42,300 nt of DNA. Origin: a virus. Lineage: Duplodnaviria > Heunggongvirae > Uroviricota > Caudoviricetes. Positions 3,333-13,992 of this stretch are shown one piece after another. Position 1 is the first letter of the stretch. Each line of letters begins with the position of its first letter. The position numbers and the translations under genes are program-made. Location of the stretch: positions 1 to 42,300 of IMG/VR virus record IMGVR_UViG_2778261297_000006, one strand, 5' to 3'. Below the pieces are notes generated by a model. That model made no database searches. It saw only the letters and a program-made list of their open reading frames with translations, and was not told the DNA's origin.

Positions 3333-4564
3333 TTCACCTCCTGCTGCGGTGCTGCTGGCATTTCACGCCAGTGCGTAACTGAGTGCGGATCCGGATATTC
3401 GGTGCCATCATCCCAGCGATTGCCATTCCACATTGCAGACCACATCTCACCGTCTTCATACATGACCATTACCGGAATTAACTTATCCGGCATTCGCTCA
3501 CTACAGCTTATCCAAGCATCCGGAGTTACCGGAGAATTGCCACCCTGAACAGTAGGCATATCCGGACCTTTGCGAATCGCCCTGGCAAGATCGATTGGGT
3601 CGTCGTACAACCAGTCACCTGTTTGCGGATGATTGGCTTCTGCCAATTGTGCAGCCCACTCCAGGCCGTCTTTGTGTCCTTGCAGATAGTCCAGCGGCAA
3701 CTCATCACGATTACTTACGGGTTCGATTTGTTCGGAATTACCGGACAACTGCATGGTACCTTCATTGGTGAGGGTACCATCTGCACCCTGAAGCATGGCG
3801 GCGCGGCAGGCATACTCAACGCCCTTAACTGCATCTGCGCAGTAGTTATAGCGATTGCATTCCACTAATTTCCGTTTGAGTTTTTCAATTGCCTGCGCGA
3901 CATCAGCCTGTATTACAGGAACTGGCGGAACGGCTGTTTGCTCTCGAACGTCATTAGTCGCTATCGGTTCTGCTGCCAACTGACTGGCATATTTGTTAAT
4001 GGTAACGATAAGCTCTTGCTCAGCCTCATCCAGACAATCACCGATACCTCGCCTGTCACCGTCAAAATCATCGAAATCGGCACGAATCTTGGCAACCTTC
4101 AGGATTGCGGACAACACCTCACTAGGAATTACCGGATAGTTGGTTGACGTTTCCGCGATTTCCCGAAAATTATTGGTTGACGAATTCTTGTTTTCCCGAA
4201 AGTTTCCGGACTGAAGCATGGCGGCGCGGCAGGCGTTCCAGCCTCTCACCTCTGCAATAGCGGCAACAGCATCAACCGTGTACATGCTAAGAGGATTAGG
4301 CATTGGTTTTTCTTCCGGTACTACTGGAACGGGGGGAGCGGCGTAGACCTCAATAATTCCATTATCAATAGGCCATTCTCCATCCTTGAGGTAGTCACTT
4401 GTGCCGTCAACTTGCTGTTCTGCAATGTGGAATGCACCTATTGGTTTTGCTTCGAGCGATGCCAGCGCAATCCGTGCCAGTTCCATTTGTTCACCACGGG
4501 TAAGCCCGTTTTCAAGCGGATTTTTAATGAACAATTCAATACGTTCTTTGGTAATAGTGCTCAT
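3329..4564 (-). CDS. DUF551-type C-terminal domain protein (411 aa), ea-region hypothetical
   Basis: C-terminal block WISCSERMPDK...VTHWREMP resembles the DUF551 domain common in enterobacterial prophages (recall); contains an internal duplicated ACRAAMLQ module. Confidence 0.65.
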   Translation of the reverse strand: MSTITKERIELFIKNPLENGLTRGEQMELARIALASLEAKPIGAFHIAEQQVDGTSDYLKDGEWPIDNGIIEVYAAPPVPVVPEEKPMPNPLSMYTVDAVAAIAEVRGWNACRAAMLQSGNFRENKNSSTNNFREIAETSTNYPVIPSEVLSAILKVAKIRADFDDFDGDRRGIGDCLDEAEQELIVTINKYASQLAAEPIATNDVREQTAVPPVPVIQADVAQAIEKLKRKLVECNRYNYCADAVKGVEYACRAAMLQGADGTLTNEGTMQLSGNSEQIEPVSNRDELPLDYLQGHKDGLEWAAQLAEANHPQTGDWLYDDPIDLARAIRKGPDMPTVQGGNSPVTPDAWISCSERMPDKLIPVMVMYEDGEMWSAMWNGNRWDDGTEYPDPHSVTHWREMPAAPQQEVK

Positions 4565-4567
4565 GGG

Positions 4568-5002
4568 TTAGTCCTCACCTTTCTGTTGCACTACCGGAAC
4601 CGATAAATCGACGCACCAGGAGATAACGCCGAATTGATCATCGTTCTGCGCTTCACCCCAAACGTAATATTTTGATCCTGGCCGACCCATTGCCGGGTCA
4701 AATACTTCTATGCCGCGTTCTGCCGTTAACGACATCAGAATCTGATGCAGGCCGCCTTTGATGTTCAGTGACGGAACGGTCAGGAAGTAAATAAACCCGT
4801 AAAGCAATTCGGCCTTGCGCTGGCTTCCGTAAAAATACGGGATTTTGTAATAATCCAGCGCGTCGTCGAGCCAGTCTGTTTTGTCGTGGAATTTCTGATG
4901 CCAGCGTTCCACTACCTCATCGACAGGTTGACCGGCAACCATTGCAACGCAGGTAGCCATGCAGGTGTTAAATGTTGGCTGCATTTGATGTTGAAGCATC
5001 AC
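4568..5002 (-). CDS. Hypothetical protein (144 aa) with conserved Cys and His that could form a papain-like dyad
   Basis: Motifs FNTCMATCVAMVAG and GGLHQILM; assignment to a peptidase fold is speculative. Confidence 0.55.
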   Translation of the reverse strand: MMLQHQMQPTFNTCMATCVAMVAGQPVDEVVERWHQKFHDKTDWLDDALDYYKIPYFYGSQRKAELLYGFIYFLTVPSLNIKGGLHQILMSLTAERGIEVFDPAMGRPGSKYYVWGEAQNDDQFGVISWCVDLSVPVVQQKGED

Positions 5003-5373
5003 TCCCCCTTACCGATGCCAGCGGCGCTAAGCTTGGTATTCACATCACCTTCAAAAATAGGCAGTACACCAATTGCAGCGGCCCAGTTTTTAGCTAACTC
5101 AGGGTCAGATGTCTCGTCGGTGTAGTCTGATGCCCGCCACCCAATCAGTCGTTTCTGACCAGGAATGTCAGAGTTTCGCTTCTCCGTTGCTTGCTCTAGA
5201 GCATTAAGAAGTGTACGTATTTCATGCTGCTGAGTAGAGATGCTTGAGTCTTTGGCTTCCAGCTCATCAAGCAGCGCCAGCACATCCCGAGTGGGGACCA
5301 TAAAGTTCGGCATGAAGTTATCTTTTGCCTTTTCTGCTGTTAGGCGCAGCGCCTGTTTGTCGATGTTTCTCAT
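4999..5373 (-). CDS. Hypothetical protein (124 aa)
   Basis: ORF with ATGA start/stop overlap to both neighbours in the early-left operon. Confidence 0.55.
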   Translation of the reverse strand: MRNIDKQALRLTAEKAKDNFMPNFMVPTRDVLALLDELEAKDSSISTQQHEIRTLLNALEQATEKRNSDIPGQKRLIGWRASDYTDETSDPELAKNWAAAIGVLPIFEGDVNTKLSAAGIGKGE

Positions 5374-6107
5374 TGGGCGGCCTCCTGGCGGTCTATGCGT
5401 TCAATTTCAGCCAGAATAAGTGCGCCAGCTTTCACCAGGTCACGGCGTGGATTTGTCGGCTTCCACCATTCTGGTGTCCACGGCCAGCCAAATGGAATGC
5501 GGTTAAATGGATGGATGGCATTCAGTACGTAGCATGAGGATGCCCACAGTAACTGCGATTTGCTGTACTGGTCATCATGCTCAGGCGTCCATCCCTCAAC
5601 TGATTGATGGCGTTGACGCTCTGCAATTACTGACTGAACGGCATTGGATAGCGATTTCACACCCTGCGCACGCACTTCAGCCAGGAAAGCATCGGTGGCT
5701 GGGGTTTCTGGAATGGCGTCTGGAATAACCTCTGAGTAGACGCGTTCCATTGCCGACTCCCATCCGTAGTAACAAGCCGAATAGCCGTCGCGCTGGTAGC
5801 CGTGGTCTTCAACTCCACATCCCATGCCCTGGTCATGGTATTCAGGCTGATTGTCGGGATTAATGCAGTATTCAATGACCGACTTCATCCCCGCATTCTC
5901 CGCTGCCAGCGCAGTGCACTTGGCCTCAAGGTTATCAATCGTGATTCCAGCAGAACGACACTCCCGCAACGCCGTTTCCAGTTTTGATTCAAGTTCACCG
6001 AACTTACGGACAAGGTATTCAGCGTTTGTTTCGTTAACCTTTAAATCTCGTGGGATGCATTTACCTTTCAGAAAACCATCCATCTCAATTAGTGACATTT
6101 GTTTCAT
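5370..6107 (-). CDS. Hypothetical early-region protein (245 aa)
   Basis: Long ORF in the operon, start coupled to the upstream stop; no recognised domain. Confidence 0.6.
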
Positions 6108-8803: not shown

Positions 8804-9772
8804 TTAGTAGGTTATTTTTGTTGCGAATACTTCGCCTTTTACGATGGCTGTTATGATATTTTTAGCAACATCTTCTGATGCGCCAACCTTGATAAGGTCA
8901 GCAAGTATTTTGTTATTTACTTCTTTCCGGTGAGCTTTATCCTTTGCTCTACGCTCTTCTTCTTCCTTGATTCTTTTTTCTTCTGCTATTCTGGCTTGCT
9001 CTTTTGCTTCAGCCTCGCGCCGGATTCGTTCAGCCTCCTCCTGTGCTTTTCTGCGTTCTGCTTCAATTGCTGCCTGCTTTTCTCTTTCAGCTCGTTCTGC
9101 TGCCTCTTTTGCTTCGCGCTGTGCTCGTTGCTCGGCTTCAATGCGTTCACGCTCTGCACGTTCCGCTGCGGCCTTAGCTTCTGCTTCTCGCCTTGCTGCT
9201 GCTTCAATTTCGGCTTTTGCCTTTGCTTCGGCTTCAGCTCTGGCTTTCTCTTCAGCTTCTCTTTTTAAGCGTTCTTCATGCTCTCGCTTTTCCTGCTCCG
9301 CTTTGAGTCTTGCCTCTTCTCTTTGGCGGTCAAATTCGCGATCCATCAAAATCGCTATTTCATGGTCAGACTCAATTTGCTTTGCGAGAGCTTCAGCTGC
9401 TGACTTAGCTTCTTCTTCGGCTTTAATCCGTGCCTGTTCCTCCTCATAATCAGTAAGAGGCTGGCGCGCCTTGGCTTTCAGTTCATCAAGGCGATCACGC
9501 ACTGTCTTGCGGTTAGCATCAATTAGCTTTGGAATTTCCTTCAGTTCAGCAACAAGGTCTTTGCCAAGACCATCGAGATATGTTTTCGTCTGCGCAACTT
9601 TATACGCCAGAGAAGCGATCTCCTTTCTGCCCTTTGCCGTTGTGATATCAGGCACAAAGGACATAACTTCACGTTCAACCTTTTGGAGAATTTCTTCAAT
9701 CTGGTCGGCAGACTGAAATACAGTCATTGCATTTGCTTTTTCAATAACAACTAAATCTGTTACTTCACTCAT
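8804..9772 (-). CDS. Highly charged coiled-coil / single-alpha-helix protein (322 aa from the ATG at 9772)
   Basis: About 170 residues of E/R/A/K repeats between a globular N-terminal and a short C-terminal domain; GGAGG sits 4 nt upstream of the ATG at 9772. The track's longer ORF to 9868 would span a terminator. Confidence 0.6.
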   Translation of the reverse strand: MSEVTDLVVIEKANAMTVFQSADQIEEILQKVEREVMSFVPDITTAKGRKEIASLAYKVAQTKTYLDGLGKDLVAELKEIPKLIDANRKTVRDRLDELKAKARQPLTDYEEEQARIKAEEEAKSAAEALAKQIESDHEIAILMDREFDRQREEARLKAEQEKREHEERLKREAEEKARAEAEAKAKAEIEAAARREAEAKAAAERAERERIEAEQRAQREAKEAAERAEREKQAAIEAERRKAQEEAERIRREAEAKEQARIAEEKRIKEEEERRAKDKAHRKEVNNKILADLIKVGASEDVAKNIITAIVKGEVFATKITY

Positions 9773-9784
9773 ATATCCTCCATC

Positions 9785-9814
9785 AAAAAAAATTGCCCTC
9801 ACACTGGAGGGCAA
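9785..9814 (-). terminator. Intrinsic terminator (minus strand) between the AT-rich gene and the coiled-coil gene
   Basis: Stem ttgccctc/gagggcaa with a 6-nt loop, followed on the minus-strand transcript by a run of eight U. Confidence 0.55.
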
Positions 9815-9916
9815 AGAAGATTTCCAATAATCAGAACAAGTCGGCTCCTGTTTAGTTACGAGCGACATTGCTCCGTGTATTCACTCGTTGGAATGAATAC
9901 ACGGTGCTTATTCATA

Positions 9917-10981: not shown

Positions 10982-11206
10982 TCATAATTCACTCTTCAAT
11001 ACTTCCAGCTTACTAATCGCCGAAAGATATCCGCGCTGATAGGGCATCATCATTCCTTCGAGCTTGCCACTTCTTAACTCCTCCCTGAGCAATTGTATTG
11101 CTTGATCAATAACCTCTGCCTTAGCGTCCTTTATGGCTTGCTTTCGGGGCTTTGCTTTCTGCTTTGGCAGATTTCTCAAGCATGATGGAATGTATGTCTG
11201 ATTCAT
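10982..11206 (-). CDS. Hypothetical protein (about 74 aa) immediately downstream of N
   Basis: The ATG at 11206 lies 4 nt after the N stop codon (reading order on the minus strand); helical, Lys-rich. Confidence 0.45.
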   Translation of the reverse strand: MNQTYIPSCLRNLPKQKAKPRKQAIKDAKAEVIDQAIQLLREELRSGKLEGMMMPYQRGYLSAISKLEVLKSEL

Positions 11207-11209
11207 CAC

Positions 11210-11593
11210 TTACCTCGCCGTCAGTTGTTTTGATTTCCGGTAGCCTGCCGCGTAAATGGCTACGTTTGGAAGACATACACCAGTTTCTGGTTGCTTATGT
11301 CCAAACTCATTCGCGTACACAATGGCCGCTCGCTCCAGATTGCGTCTGTATTCTTTCTGTTGCCAGATCACGTCCTGTGCCATGAACTTAATTGGCTTAG
11401 CGTCTTCTATGCGCTCAGGCGTTTCGTGAGTACCTTTAGCCTGAATCTGCGCTCTGCTTAGAGTAGGGCGGTGTAATACTTCTGAACTTATTGCTTCTTC
11501 GCGGGCCAGTACGCCGTTAGCTAATGCCTTTGCCTTTAAACGCTCACGACGACGAGAACGTGAATTGCCTTTGAACTGAGTTCTGCGTGTCAT
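11210..11593 (-). CDS. N: Antitermination protein N (P22 gp24 type, 127 aa)
   Basis: N-terminal arginine-rich motif SRSRRRERLKAKA; first gene downstream of pL/nutL; AGGAGG ribosome-binding site. Confidence 0.7.
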   Translation of the reverse strand: MTRRTQFKGNSRSRRRERLKAKALANGVLAREEAISSEVLHRPTLSRAQIQAKGTHETPERIEDAKPIKFMAQDVIWQQKEYRRNLERAAIVYANEFGHKQPETGVCLPNVAIYAAGYRKSKQLTAR

Positions 11594-11854
11594 ATAGACC
11601 TCCTGATGAACTTTGGTGGTGTGGTGGCTGGTAGTCTAGCTCCAGCTTGTTGAGTCTCATTCGGAGGGGTATAACCGGCACCCCAGTGATTTTTCCATGC
11701 GACAACGTGCGCGTTATGGCGGCCTTATCGCCCGCGGCTCCCCATCTCGTCCACGCTATTGCTAGCGTTGGGAGCGCTTCACCGCTCAACAGTAGGTAAG
11801 CACTTGCCAGTGACTAGCTGGCTTCACCACACCCCAAAGTTCACTTTGGTTATT

Positions 11855-11869
11855 GCGCTTTGTCAGCGC
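11855..11869 (-). promoter_or_regulatory. nutL boxB hairpin (P22-type GCGCTGACAAAGCGC on the transcript)
   Basis: The plus strand reads gcgctttgtcagcgc, whose reverse complement matches the P22-type boxB; lies between OL and N. Confidence 0.6.
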
Positions 11870-11940
11870 CGTAGATTCATATTCGAATCGTTGTATATTC
11901 ACCGCCCTGGTGAGTAATGCGTCCTGCTGATGGCTTAAAG

Positions 11941-12023
11941 ATAACTTAGGTTATAGGTGTGGTCAATAACCTAATTTATATTTTATGGTAAATAAGTTAT
12001 AAGTGATGGATAACAAAGGTATT
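11941..12023. promoter_or_regulatory. OL operator cluster with pL (leftward promoter)
   Basis: ATAAC-N4-GTTAT type dyads at 11941..11954 (perfect), 11965..11979 and 12010..12023, the same half-site as in OR. Confidence 0.5.
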
Positions 12024-12152
12024 TTATTTTTGTAAATGTTGCTGATTGATTGGTGTTTGAGGGCTTGCGTGCGGGGTGAAGGTGTTACCTTTGGCTTGAT
12101 GCTTGTCTATGATGAGGATGGTTGATTGGGTGGTGAACGGCAGGAAAAGAAA

Positions 12153-12172
12153 ACCCGGCGCTGAGGCCGGGT
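12153..12172 (-). terminator. Intrinsic terminator ending the cI-side transcript (tImm-like); hairpin is symmetric and may act bidirectionally
   Basis: Stem acccggc/gccgggt with a 6-nt loop; U-rich tract follows on the minus strand directly after the stop codon of the 98-aa gene. Confidence 0.6.
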
Positions 12173-12176
12173 GTTT

Positions 12177-12473
12177 TTAGTCTTTTCTTTTGCTTAGCAT
12201 TTCGTCGATTTCTAAGTCAATACGATATTGATCTATTGCTTTTCTCTCGTTTGGGGTTGGTATTTTATACTGTTCAATTAGATCTGTTGTGTATTTTATT
12301 TCATCTAATGTTATTTTTATATCAGAGAGAATCTCTTTTATATCAATTATATGCTCTTCTTCTTTTGCGCGATTAGAGCTATGTTCAATCATTTGAGATA
12401 GCTTTTTGCTAATGCTTAGCAAAACAAAAAGAATGATGACCAAAACAACAACAAAAACTATCAGAAATTCCAT
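12177..12473 (-). CDS. AT-rich single-pass membrane protein (98 aa) in the rex-equivalent slot downstream of cI
   Basis: N-terminal TM helix EFLIVFVVVLVIILFVLLSI followed by a charged helical tail; GGAGG 6 nt upstream of the ATG; very low GC by eye; terminator immediately downstream. Confidence 0.65.
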   Translation of the reverse strand: MEFLIVFVVVLVIILFVLLSISKKLSQMIEHSSNRAKEEEHIIDIKEILSDIKITLDEIKYTTDLIEQYKIPTPNERKAIDQYRIDLEIDEMLSKRKD

Positions 12474-12513
12474 TATCCCTCCGCACTTCCGTAAGTCTTC
12501 TTCTGATTATCGG

Positions 12514-13221
12514 TTACCAACTATGAGACGACCAGAATACTCTGCCAATAATCCTTACGGTTTCATGAAATTCATCTCTATCCATTACTTCATCCGGGTA
12601 CTCTTCGCGATTTATTGATCTGATTATCACCGATGTAGGGGTGGCGATTAATGTTTTTACTCGTAACAAATCAGACTGGCAAATAGCGTAGGTTTTACCA
12701 TCTCTGATTGTGGTATCTTGCGTGTTAACACCAACAACATCGCCATCGTGAAGGGTTGGTTCCATGCTTTGCCCTACAACCCTAACTAGCTTGGCTGATC
12801 TTTCAGATACTCCCATCTTTTTCAGATAGTGCTTTCTGAAAACCAAAGAGAACTCCGATGATTCCTCTAGCTCGCAGCTACCGCTTCCAGCTGAAAGCGA
12901 AACGTTAAGAAGAGGCAACGCAACAAACTCGTCATCGTTTCTTTTAATGTCTTCCCATACCACAGCTTTTAAAGATGACTCACGGACATTGGATGGTTCT
13001 TCATGTGCACCATCCCTCATTTCACCAATACCAGAACTAAGCCATTCAGGACGCACTTTTAAAGCATTGGCTAATTCAACCATCTTGCGAGATCCGTTTG
13101 TTTTACCGGACGACATCTTCTGTATGGCTGGCTGAGATATTCCAACCATGTCAGCAAGCTGTGATTGTGATACCCCTGCTGAGCTCATGGCTGCATTTAG
13201 TCTTTCTGCGAATGTTTTCAT
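12514..13221 (-). CDS. cI: CI-type prophage repressor (HTH plus LexA-like S24 peptidase domain), about 235 aa from the internal ATG
   Basis: HTH segment SQSQLADMVGISQPAIQKM, C-terminal S24-like VGQSMEPTL block; divergent from cro across operators. Start chosen at MKTFAERL (13221), likely near-leaderless. Confidence 0.85.
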   Translation of the reverse strand: MKTFAERLNAAMSSAGVSQSQLADMVGISQPAIQKMSSGKTNGSRKMVELANALKVRPEWLSSGIGEMRDGAHEEPSNVRESSLKAVVWEDIKRNDDEFVALPLLNVSLSAGSGSCELEESSEFSLVFRKHYLKKMGVSERSAKLVRVVGQSMEPTLHDGDVVGVNTQDTTIRDGKTYAICQSDLLRVKTLIATPTSVIIRSINREEYPDEVMDRDEFHETVRIIGRVFWSSHSW

Positions 13222-13233
13222 ACCCACAAATCT

Positions 13234-13296
13234 ATAACTACGGTTATCCAAAGTAAAATAACAAAGGTTATTGCTATTTTTTATAACTTGAGTTAT
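13234..13296. promoter_or_regulatory. OR operator cluster (three dyads) with pR/pRM
   Basis: ATAACtacgGTTAT at 13234..13247, AATAACaaagGTTATT at 13257..13272 and ATAACttgaGTTAT at 13283..13296, about 24 bp centre to centre. Confidence 0.6.
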
Positions 13297-13332
13297 CTTT
13301 GGTTATAACTAATGACCACAAGAGGTATGCTC

Positions 13333-13557
13333 ATGAATTTAGTAATTCAACGAGCCTTGAAAATTGTCGGTAGCCAAAAGCGCCTTGCCGACAAGTGTGG
13401 TGTAACGCAGCCAGCAGTACACAAATGGCTGAAAGGCGGGTTGGTCTCTCCAGAGAAAGTTACCGCCATCGTTAACGCCACTGGAGGGCAGATCAAGGCT
13501 TACGAAATTCGCCCCGATTTGCCACACCTGTTTCCAAAACCGAATCAGGCAGCATAA
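13333..13557 (+). CDS. cro: Cro-like repressor (74 aa from the ATG at 13333)
   Basis: Small HTH protein divergent from cI; AAGAGG 7 nt upstream of the ATG at 13333. Confidence 0.7.
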   Translation: MNLVIQRALKIVGSQKRLADKCGVTQPAVHKWLKGGLVSPEKVTAIVNATGGQIKAYEIRPDLPHLFPKPNQAA

Positions 13558-13564
13558 GTAACAC

Positions 13565-13610
13565 CGCTCTTTTCACAATGGACATTCGTCCTACGTCGCT
13601 GACAAAGCGA
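13565..13610 (+). promoter_or_regulatory. nutR (boxA-like CGCTCTTTT plus boxB hairpin TCGCTGACAAAGCGA)
   Basis: boxA-like at 13565..13573 and boxB at 13596..13610 with the same GACAAAG loop as nutL. Confidence 0.55.
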
Positions 13611-13695
13611 GTCCCAATATATCTGACCAACTAAGGCCATATGCGTTTCCACGCATACCTTTCAGCTAAATATTCACTATTGGAAATATTAAGAA

Positions 13696-13992
13696 ATGAC
13701 ACAAGCAAGTTACAGCAAGCCAACACAGCGAGAAATTGATCGCGCTGAAACTGATTTACTCATCAACCTGTCAACGCTTACCCAGCGCGGTCTGGCAAAG
13801 ATGATTGGCTGTCATGAATCGAAGATAAGCAGAACGGACTGGAGATTTATTGCTTCGGTCTTGTGTGCTTTCGGAATGGCATCAGACATCAGTCCGATTA
13901 GCAGGGCTTTTAAGTATGCGCTTGATGAAATCACAAAGAAAAAATCCCCGGCCGCCACCGAGGATTTTAAGCAAATTGATATGCAATTCTGA
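13696..13992 (+). CDS. cII: CII-like transcriptional activator (98 aa)
   Basis: C-terminal KKKSPAATEDFKQIDMQF resembles lambda CII (KKRPAATE...QIQMEF, by recall); position after cro/nutR. Confidence 0.75.
   Translation: MTQASYSKPTQREIDRAETDLLINLSTLTQRGLAKMIGCHESKISRTDWRFIASVLCAFGMASDISPISRAFKYALDEITKKKSPAATEDFKQIDMQF

Follow-up and report, generated by a model that had tools for sequence, protein, structure and literature searches.

The viral DNA analysed here is a stretch of 42,300 nucleotides (the window; positions 1 to 42,300 of the IMG/VR record IMGVR_UViG_2778261297_000006, Caudoviricetes) which carries, immediately downstream of its cI-type repressor gene and on the same strand, a 98-codon open reading frame, ORF98. 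To judge from its substitution pattern, ORF98 is almost certainly a real gene under purifying selection. Together with its ribosome-binding site and terminator it forms a sharply bounded unit which recurs behind nine different repressors and is probably transcribed with them. The protein is very probably anchored in the membrane, and it is tentatively proposed to be an exclusion factor produced in lysogens.

Exclusion genes expressed in lysogens classically reside in the interval between cI and N, and most of the occupants of this interval, including all of the alternative cargo encountered in this work, are uncharacterised. What had been an anonymous reading frame is now a defined unit: a 334-bp promoterless cassette encoding a bounded family with a clear signature and occupying the same operon position behind nine repressors. 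To a specialist, an orphan membrane gene at this location would be no surprise; the nine immunity types, the sharp limits of the cassette and its presence in Stx1a (Shiga toxin 1a) prophages make it a clean experimental target.

Coding constraint on ORF98

Comparison of ORF98 with its Citrobacter orthologues (76–78% amino acid identity) gave 0.79–0.87 synonymous substitutions per synonymous site (dS) and 0.125–0.133 non-synonymous substitutions per non-synonymous site (dN), with dN/dS ratios of 0.145–0.163. Constraint is strongest in codons 44–98, where the proportions of non-synonymous (pN) and synonymous (pS) differences are 0.064 and 0.58 respectively, and weakest in the linker, codons 27–43. 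All 31 copies of the gene (from 30 IMG/VR contigs and the window) are full length; they represent 15 alleles, and the amino acid changes between them are conservative. A chance reading frame without function in a spacer of AT-rich sequence inside the immunity region might also be short, rich in AT, devoid of any known domain and left unannotated in the sole phage record that contains it, all of which is true of ORF98. Such an origin is difficult to reconcile with a dN/dS of about 0.15 at a dS of about 0.85, with an end-to-end match to a PHROG family, with homologues of down to about 30% identity that retain length, architecture and position, or with the strong ribosome-binding site and the terminator. 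The dN/dS ratio and the conserved context effectively refute it, and we regard a chance origin as extremely improbable.

The putative cI-ORF98 operon

The cI gene ends in TGG TAA, with its stop codon at 12514–12516, and the ATG of ORF98 begins at 12473, so that exactly 40 nt (12474–12513) lie between the two genes. The ORF98 stop codon is followed by 4 nt and then by ACCCGGC-CTCAGC-GCCGGGT and TTTCTTTT; a terminator scan placed the stem at 12153–12172. The folding energy of the terminator is −13.7 kcal/mol with a z-score against shuffled sequences of only −1.97, so the hairpin considered alone is modest. The GC content of ORF98 is 0.296; that of cI is 0.431, that of N 0.490 and that of the window as a whole 0.474. 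This is the lowest value among all segments of 297 nt (the fraction at or below it being 0.0005) and lies about four standard deviations under the mean.

Much of this had been anticipated in the original prediction, which was made from the letters alone. The 98-residue minus-strand frame at 12177–12473, 40 nt past the cI stop, is where it was said to be; the GGAGG ribosome-binding site assigned to it is present, as GGAGGG at 12477–12482; the hairpin and U-tract terminator proposed at 12153–12172 proves to have a 7-bp stem and a 6-nt loop ahead of TTTCTTTT; and the GC content is indeed far under that of cI and N. Co-transcription with cI, originally considered probable, is now much better supported, by nine unrelated repressors with intergenic gaps of 0–54 nt and by a shared DNA unit that leaves no room for a promoter. 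The slot had been called equivalent to that of rexA/rexB, and ORF98 does lie between cI and PL/N and is bracketed by the left (OL) and right (OR) operators. The further remark that this slot commonly holds cargo expressed in lysogens accords with published descriptions of the cI-N interval as a hotspot of mosaic diversity for lysogen-expressed accessory genes (PMC8585504, PMC7067206, PMC3564112).

The gene upstream of ORF98 matches the Pfam families Peptidase_S24 (1.6e-17) and HTH_3 (8.5e-07), and is therefore assigned as a cI-type repressor; its RefSeq record is that of a 235-residue XRE regulator. The start of this gene is ambiguous, since the longest frame begins at TTG 13251 (245 residues) and a shorter one at ATG 13221 (235 residues). 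RefSeq and the operator layout both favour ATG 13221, which adjoins OR and could give rise to a leaderless PRM transcript, as in lambda.

A consensus scan for a promoter belonging to ORF98 gave a single nearby match, scoring 9/12 and located inside cI, in a region that holds fewer matches than shuffled sequence. This reading was dropped for want of anything convincing, although a consensus scan is weak evidence and leaves some room for an internal promoter at the 3' end of cI. By far the simplest reading is transcription from the repressor promoters, because the gaps are 0–54 nt and the unit shared between loci begins only 10 nt before the ATG. PRM would then drive ORF98 in lysogens, and PRE would do so as lysogeny is being established; in lytic growth the gene would be silent, because PL and PR both point away from it.

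Between the ORF98 terminator and OL there is a spacer of about 120 nt (12031–12150) whose transcribed minus strand is strongly C-rich and G-poor (GC skew on the plus strand, +0.40 to +0.48). It resembles a Rho-utilisation site, which could serve as a backup to the intrinsic terminator. The spacer matches no Rfam family, and positions 11000–13700 gave one chance sub-threshold match only. Given this null result, an RNA-element reading was dropped; svsR, a small RNA from the 3' end of another phage's cI, is unrelated.

A cassette shared by diverse repressors

Nine different repressors, each with helix-turn-helix (HTH) and S24 domains and showing 20–78% mutual identity, have a member of the ORF98 family directly 3'. 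The gap between cI and the small gene is 40 nt in the window, 15 nt in each of the related loci L007 and L009, 20 nt in L012, 54 nt in L017, 12 nt in L048, 14 nt in L049, 1 nt in L050 and 0 nt in L053. Wherever the contig is long enough, these repressor-linked loci are flanked by cro, cII and O at one end and by N at the opposite end. A hairpin followed by a T-run lies within about 50 nt 3' of the gene in eight of the ten distinct related loci, and in L007, L009 and L011 the terminator stem is kept but the loop is variable.

The limits of the mobile unit emerged from blastn comparisons in two directions. The Citrobacter prophages L007 and L009, which have an unrelated cI, share with the window only the interval 12483–12150, at 81–82% identity. 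In E. coli prophages with the same cI (93–99% identical), homology ends at 12512, 2 nt past the cI stop; it resumes at 12172, the first base of the terminator stem, in L006, and at 12041, in the flank of OL, in L005. The slot is occupied in L005 (1899–2963) by genes for a DUF3024/phrog_3467 protein and for phrog_2602, and in L006 (2250–2755) by phrog_13858 and phrog_12503, all of them unrelated to ORF98 and without assigned function. In L004, whose cI is 79% identical, no gene of the slot is co-oriented with cI; a phrog_3946 gene at 2639–2848, likewise without assigned function, runs in the opposite direction. The slot genes of these three loci are further candidates for lysogen-expressed functions. 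The sharp junctions and the polymorphism of the slot together indicate a promoterless, terminator-bearing cassette that recombines in and out 3' of repressor genes, and such polymorphism behind the same cI, with a GC content of 0.296, bears the hallmarks of horizontally moved accessory cargo.

At some loci the gene has been disrupted. In L003 (E. coli 3CM) an element of the IS3 family (4078–5508) lies inside ORF98 and leaves a remnant of 75 residues (P0010), and in contig P0002 a deletion fuses ORF98 to the downstream spacer to give a frame of 139 residues; ORF98 is therefore dispensable for prophage maintenance. In L007 (5324–5530), L009 and L011 (5324–5548 in each) a convergent gene for a 68–74-residue protein of phrog_3975, likewise of unassigned function and not present in the window, abuts the ORF98 terminator, which at these loci would act bidirectionally.

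Divergence of the small protein is not correlated with that of cI (Spearman 0.04). Between the window and L007 the repressors are 26% and the small proteins 78% identical, and between L053 and L050 the corresponding figures are 78% and 35%. Co-evolution of ORF98 with cI was accordingly rejected, and what is conserved is the expression slot and not a specific repressor partner. This observation bears on the suggestion that ORF98 tunes the lysis-lysogeny behaviour of its own prophage, acting perhaps through a membrane-held regulator or through FtsH/HflKC, in the manner of 434 Hex or as proposed for RexA/RexB. Residence in the repressor operon across nine immunity types would suit such a modulator, as would a conserved domain predicted to lie in the cytoplasm, where cI, RecA, CII and FtsH act; Hex is an example of a PRM-co-transcribed protein with a role of this kind (PMC3564112), and according to a preprint RexAB takes part in the change from lysogenic to lytic growth (10.1101/2021.04.19.439022). 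Besides the lack of co-variation, the same cI (93–99% identical) is found with unrelated cargo and a 79%-identical cI with no co-oriented gene at all; because the cargo can be replaced behind the same cI, the switch does not need ORF98. Distant members of the family, moreover, lie outside prophage immunity regions. Modulation of the switch is thus considered improbable; were it to apply, it would bear on the stability of Stx1 phages.

Predicted structure of the ORF98 protein

Residues 1–19 of ORF98 have a mean Kyte-Doolittle hydropathy of 3.39, and the remainder of the protein is charged (14 K+R, 19 D+E) and predicted to be helical, in agreement with the single N-terminal transmembrane helix and charged helical tail originally foreseen. 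In AlphaFold 2 models the transmembrane helix has a predicted local distance difference test score (pLDDT) of 86–91. The chain as a whole (pLDDT about 80, predicted template modelling score, pTM, about 0.3) is modelled either as helices 2–38, 45–68 and 74–96, or as one helix spanning 2–68 followed by a second at 74–97. On these predictions ORF98 is anchored in the membrane with high probability. Its N-terminus is an acidic stub of two residues, and KK directly follows the helix. Across the family the stub has a net charge of 0 to −2 and the segment following the helix a net charge of 0 to +2, a distribution that predicts an N-out/C-in topology; the conserved hairpin is therefore predicted to be in the cytoplasm. 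The invariant alignment columns of this core give the pattern DIKxIL..IKxTLDEIKYTTDLIExYKxPTPxERKxIDQYRIDLEIxEMLS. A cleavable signal peptide, with cleavage between SIS and KK, was rejected by inference: there is no basic n-region, the h-region is of about 20 residues, and KK would stand at +1/+2.

The linker and second helix follow a heptad-like pattern in which 8 of 13 a/d positions are hydrophobic, and a profile search of the PDB returned designed coiled-coil bundles and one designed transmembrane bundle; oligomerisation is plausible on both counts. The same findings could be taken to describe a latent membrane toxin, part of an addiction or abortive module, in which the long and very hydrophobic transmembrane helix oligomerises into a pore that the acidic tail keeps closed. 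RexB, a membrane effector in the same slot, offers an analogy, and full-length Hex is toxic when over-expressed (PMC3564112). The helix, however, is without polar or charged residues that might line a pore; there is no conserved adjacent antitoxin or sensor, the convergent phrog_3975 gene being confined to Citrobacter loci; and ORF98 is presumably produced constitutively, and harmlessly, with cI. The likelihood of a toxin of this type is therefore rated as low.

Neither ORF98 itself, searched against Pfam, NCBIfam and PADLOC, nor any of 17 family members scanned singly with Pfam and PADLOC gave a match above threshold. The sub-threshold matches (DUF4446, DUF948, the transmembrane region of ZorB/MotB, and a phi29 p16.7-like PHROG) all cover the transmembrane-plus-helix part, and were set aside as compositional or architectural. 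The protein had not been recognised when the gene was first singled out, and this has not changed: it belongs to a PHROG without function and is a hypothetical protein in RefSeq. Profile and structure searches of the kind then advocated have yielded PHROG 18389 as the only significant family, and no relative in the PDB or BFVD.

The ORF98 family and its distribution

ORF98 matches PHROG 18389 from end to end (E 6.4e-62, 206.7 bits, residues 1–98 against profile positions 1–98 of 98). The family has no assigned function. All members begin with an acidic or uncharged N-terminus of 0–8 residues, followed by a hydrophobic helix of 15–22 residues, a neutral to basic juxtamembrane segment (often S-I-N/S-K-K-L) and a variable linker; these lead into the signature (I/L)KY(T/V)TDxIExYK(L/I)Pxx(E)Rxx(I/L)Dxxxx(D/N)xE(I/V), and the tail is net acidic (−2 to −9).

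Of 5,426 complete E. coli genomes, 102 (about 2%) carry ORF98 DNA, every time on the chromosome. Among 50,697 phage records just one does so, that of the Stx1a-converting phage Stx1a_10051, where the gene is unannotated. A word-indexed search of 5.8 billion proteins found clusters from E. coli and Citrobacter only, and when 1.84 billion representative proteins were searched exhaustively with a HMMER profile, no more than 14 representatives of the family came to light. A scan of GTDB species representatives revealed no relatives. On these searches the family appears to be a small orphan one. Its carriers include Stx1a-converting phages and Shiga toxin-producing E. coli (STEC; including H19, O26:H11 and O111:H8), pig strains named as enterotoxigenic E. 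coli (ETEC), and one strain of extraintestinal pathogenic E. coli (ExPEC).

E. coli H19 carries the cI of the window at 99.6% identity (H66, NZ_AP027165.1 3180578–3181324). This strain is the classical host of the Stx1 phage H-19B, and the cI-ORF98 module may be the H-19B immunity region. No paper mentioning WP_000394868 was found in the literature, and a literature search on H-19B gave background papers only.

The most distant members (L051, at 4001–4351 in Pelagicoccus sp., together with L052, L015 and L016) share the motif IEKYKLPxxxE. Among such members one gene lies behind a response regulator of the sigma-54 type and another behind a SHOCT-domain protein. The fold may have existed before repressor operons acquired it.

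This distribution is relevant to whether ORF98 might instead be a conversion factor for host physiology, that is, a small membrane regulator of transporters, sensor kinases or envelope stress, comparable to the small inner-membrane proteins of E. coli, whose benefit is unrelated to phages. Small membrane regulators generically consist of an N-terminal anchor joined to a coiled-coil-like helix in the cytoplasm, as predicted for ORF98, and the PDB profile matches are to designed coiled coils only; the weak sub-threshold profile matches common to several members are to DUF4446 and DUF948 only; distant relatives are encoded outside prophage contexts, for instance in a Verrucomicrobium; and the carriers include Stx1a-converting phages and STEC as well as the ETEC-named pig strains and the ExPEC strain. 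Against this reading, core bacterial genomes contain no homologue, with 14 representatives among 1.84 billion proteins and an empty GTDB scan, and all of the experimentally characterised occupants of the slot that were found act on phages. A role in host physiology seems unlikely, if somewhat less so than the modulator or the toxin.

Immunity region and neighbouring genes

The operator consensus of the present immunity type was deduced to be ATAAC-N4-GTTAT. The 42.3-kb window contains five matches to it, where about 1.07 are expected by chance, and all of them are at OL or OR (Table 1). Because these operators bracket ORF98, the gene is placed within a lambdoid immunity region, at the position of rexAB. 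The gene divergent from the repressor encodes a Cro-like protein. The highest-ranking Pfam match of this gene in the Cro position (13312–13557, plus strand) is YdaS_toxin (1.5e-17), ahead of P22_Cro, which is a naming quirk to be borne in mind for automatic annotations. Further along the PL operon, on the minus strand at 8804–9868, a 354-residue frame contains a long repetitive segment extremely rich in E, A, K and R; its possible equivalent in L003 is a similarly placed gene of 323 residues with the annotation 'coiled-coil domain-containing protein'.

Table 1. Location in the window of ORF98, its parts and the flanking elements of the immunity region
Feature	Coordinates	Strand	Remarks
ORF98	12177–12473	-	98 residues, ATG start, TAA stop at 12177–12179; member of PHROG 18389
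Ribosome-binding site GGAGGG	12477–12482	-	3–4 nt ahead of the ORF98 ATG
Intrinsic terminator of the cI-ORF98 operon	12143–12172	-	7-bp GC stem, 6-nt loop, TTTCTTTT tail
Transferable cassette (ribosome-binding site, ORF98 and terminator)	12150–12483	-	334 bp; limits from blastn junctions
N-terminal transmembrane helix, then KK	12408–12470	-	codons 2–22; predicted N-out/C-in anchor
Conserved acidic helix-turn-helix core	12192–12344	-	codons 44–94; helices 45–68 and 74–96
cI-type repressor, first gene of the operon	12514–13221	-	HTH and S24 autopeptidase
OR, three ATAAC-N4-GTTAT operators (PRM/PR region)	13234–13296	.	at 13234, 13258 and 13283; between cI and cro
OL/PL operators	11938–12023	.	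at 11941 and 11966, with a degenerate copy at 12010
PL-like TTGACC-17-TATCTT	11966–11938	-	promoter-like match at OL
N antiterminator, first gene of the PL operon	11210–11593	-	far border of the slot; Pfam N_peptide 2.1e-15; phrog_271

A possible role in phage exclusion

It is tempting to suggest, on the precedents of rexAB, bstA, stk and hex in the same slot, that ORF98 has an anti-phage role. Specifically, we propose, as a working model that falls short of an even chance, that it is an inner-membrane exclusion factor of the lysogen which, through contact of its hairpin with a target on the cytoplasmic side of the membrane, blocks entry or aborts infection. The cassette would have been captured as the second cistron of a repressor operon. 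Having no promoter of its own, it would depend on PRM in lysogens and on PRE while lysogeny is being established, production ceasing once Cro shuts PRM. The product would be a bitopic inner-membrane protein with a periplasmic N-terminus of two residues, a single transmembrane helix and a variable helical linker, presenting the strongly conserved acidic helix-turn-helix hairpin to the cytoplasm. Anchored in this way, and probably oligomeric, the protein would use the hairpin to bind a component at the inner membrane face, either a host inner-membrane protein needed for genome entry or a protein of the incoming phage, and the outcome for heterologous phages would be a block to genome entry or an aborted infection. 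The resident prophage would be unaffected, because ORF98 would be off during its own lytic growth.

A more ambitious and somewhat more doubtful version of the proposal is that ORF98 represents a previously undescribed, self-contained exclusion module specialised for repressor operons. It would be a bitopic protein of about 100 residues with an invariant, cytoplasm-facing hairpin (..IKYTTDxIExYKxPxxxERxxID..), acting either as a plug to genome entry at the inner face of the membrane or as a minimal, one-protein abortive switch of the Rex type. At least nine lambdoid immunity types, those of Stx1a-converting phages included, would have exchanged it. If ORF98 does exclude phages, the repertoire of superinfection exclusion and abortive infection would gain a new family of very small proteins, and ORF98 could influence which phages, Stx phages included, superinfect these pathogens.

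Several considerations weigh against an exclusion role. Searches of PADLOC, annotated PHROGs, Pfam and NCBIfam turned up no known defence or exclusion homologue of ORF98, and its models (pTM about 0.3) had no structural match in the PDB or BFVD. A protein of 98 residues without a partner is small for a sensor combined with an effector. The conserved domain is predicted to be cytoplasmic, unlike the externally exposed exclusion domains of lactococcal Sie2009 or Ltp. Very AT-rich DNA may be silenced by H-NS in E. coli. The dispensability of the gene fits an accessory role, not defence specifically. Lastly, the most distant family members, in Pelagicoccus and on metagenomic contigs, are not adjacent to repressors and lie outside lambdoid immunity regions; the fold may therefore serve a more general membrane role.

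Comparison with known occupants of the slot and with exclusion proteins

The closest positional parallel to ORF98 is lambda rexAB, which has the same slot and orientation, downstream of cI in the immunity region and with a terminator before OL/PL, is expressed with the repressor in lysogens, and includes a membrane component. Rex is characterised by its exclusion of T4 rII-type phages, in which membrane potential is lost. The Rex system differs in pairing a cytoplasmic sensor with RexB, which has four transmembrane segments, whereas ORF98 is a lone 98-residue gene without an evident internal promoter, and its product has one hydrophobic segment. In PADLOC, annotated PHROGs, Pfam and NCBIfam, no match above noise relates ORF98 to RexA or RexB.

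In the Salmonella prophage BTP1, cI and bstA form an operon with a single transcription start site, bstA lying downstream of cI with a Rho-independent terminator of its own, and BstA homologues recur behind diverse repressors (PMC8585504, PMC7067206). The resemblance of ORF98, with its nine repressor types, is one of context only: BstA is described as localising to the places where phage DNA is replicated, a description that does not fit a 98-residue protein with a predicted transmembrane anchor, and it is accompanied by a cognate self-immunity element, aba. ORF98 matched no defence model of PADLOC v2, which is assumed here to include those for BstA.

Like rexAB, stk of 933W and hex of 434 are carried on the repressor transcript, and all three give heterologous exclusion (PMC3564112). 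Hex differs from ORF98 in that its gene overlaps the cI reading frame, its product is of about 17.5 kDa, and it also stabilises the repressor, dampening RecA-stimulated cleavage (PMC3564112). Stk is a eukaryotic-like kinase, and neither Hex nor Stk is described in PMC3564112 as a single-pass membrane protein. The family libraries revealed no similarity of ORF98 to either. Epsilon34 has two orphan genes at the same position (PMC2629481).

HK97 gp15 is a small inner-membrane protein of the prophage that blocks genome entry (PMC3594210), and P22 SieA is comparable; both are expressed from the prophage and stop genome entry while leaving the outer-membrane receptor untouched (PMC3594210, PMC10883804). 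gp15 resembles ORF98 in being small and in being encoded by a moron with deviant GC content and its own terminator (PMC3594210). It differs in that its gene lies in the tail operon under its own promoter and in being YebO-like, with bacterial YebO homologues, whereas ORF98 is promoterless and has no homologues in the bacterial core genome; no annotated PHROG or Pfam match relates ORF98 to gp15/YebO or to SieA. Of the features by which morons are recognised in the Juhala/Hendrix definition (as summarised in PMC3594210), ORF98 has the deviant GC content, the presence or absence between related phages and the terminator, but not the promoter. ORF98 occupies the position typical of accessory genes of the PRM operon such as rexAB, bstA, stk and hex, and may act as they do, without belonging to any of their families.

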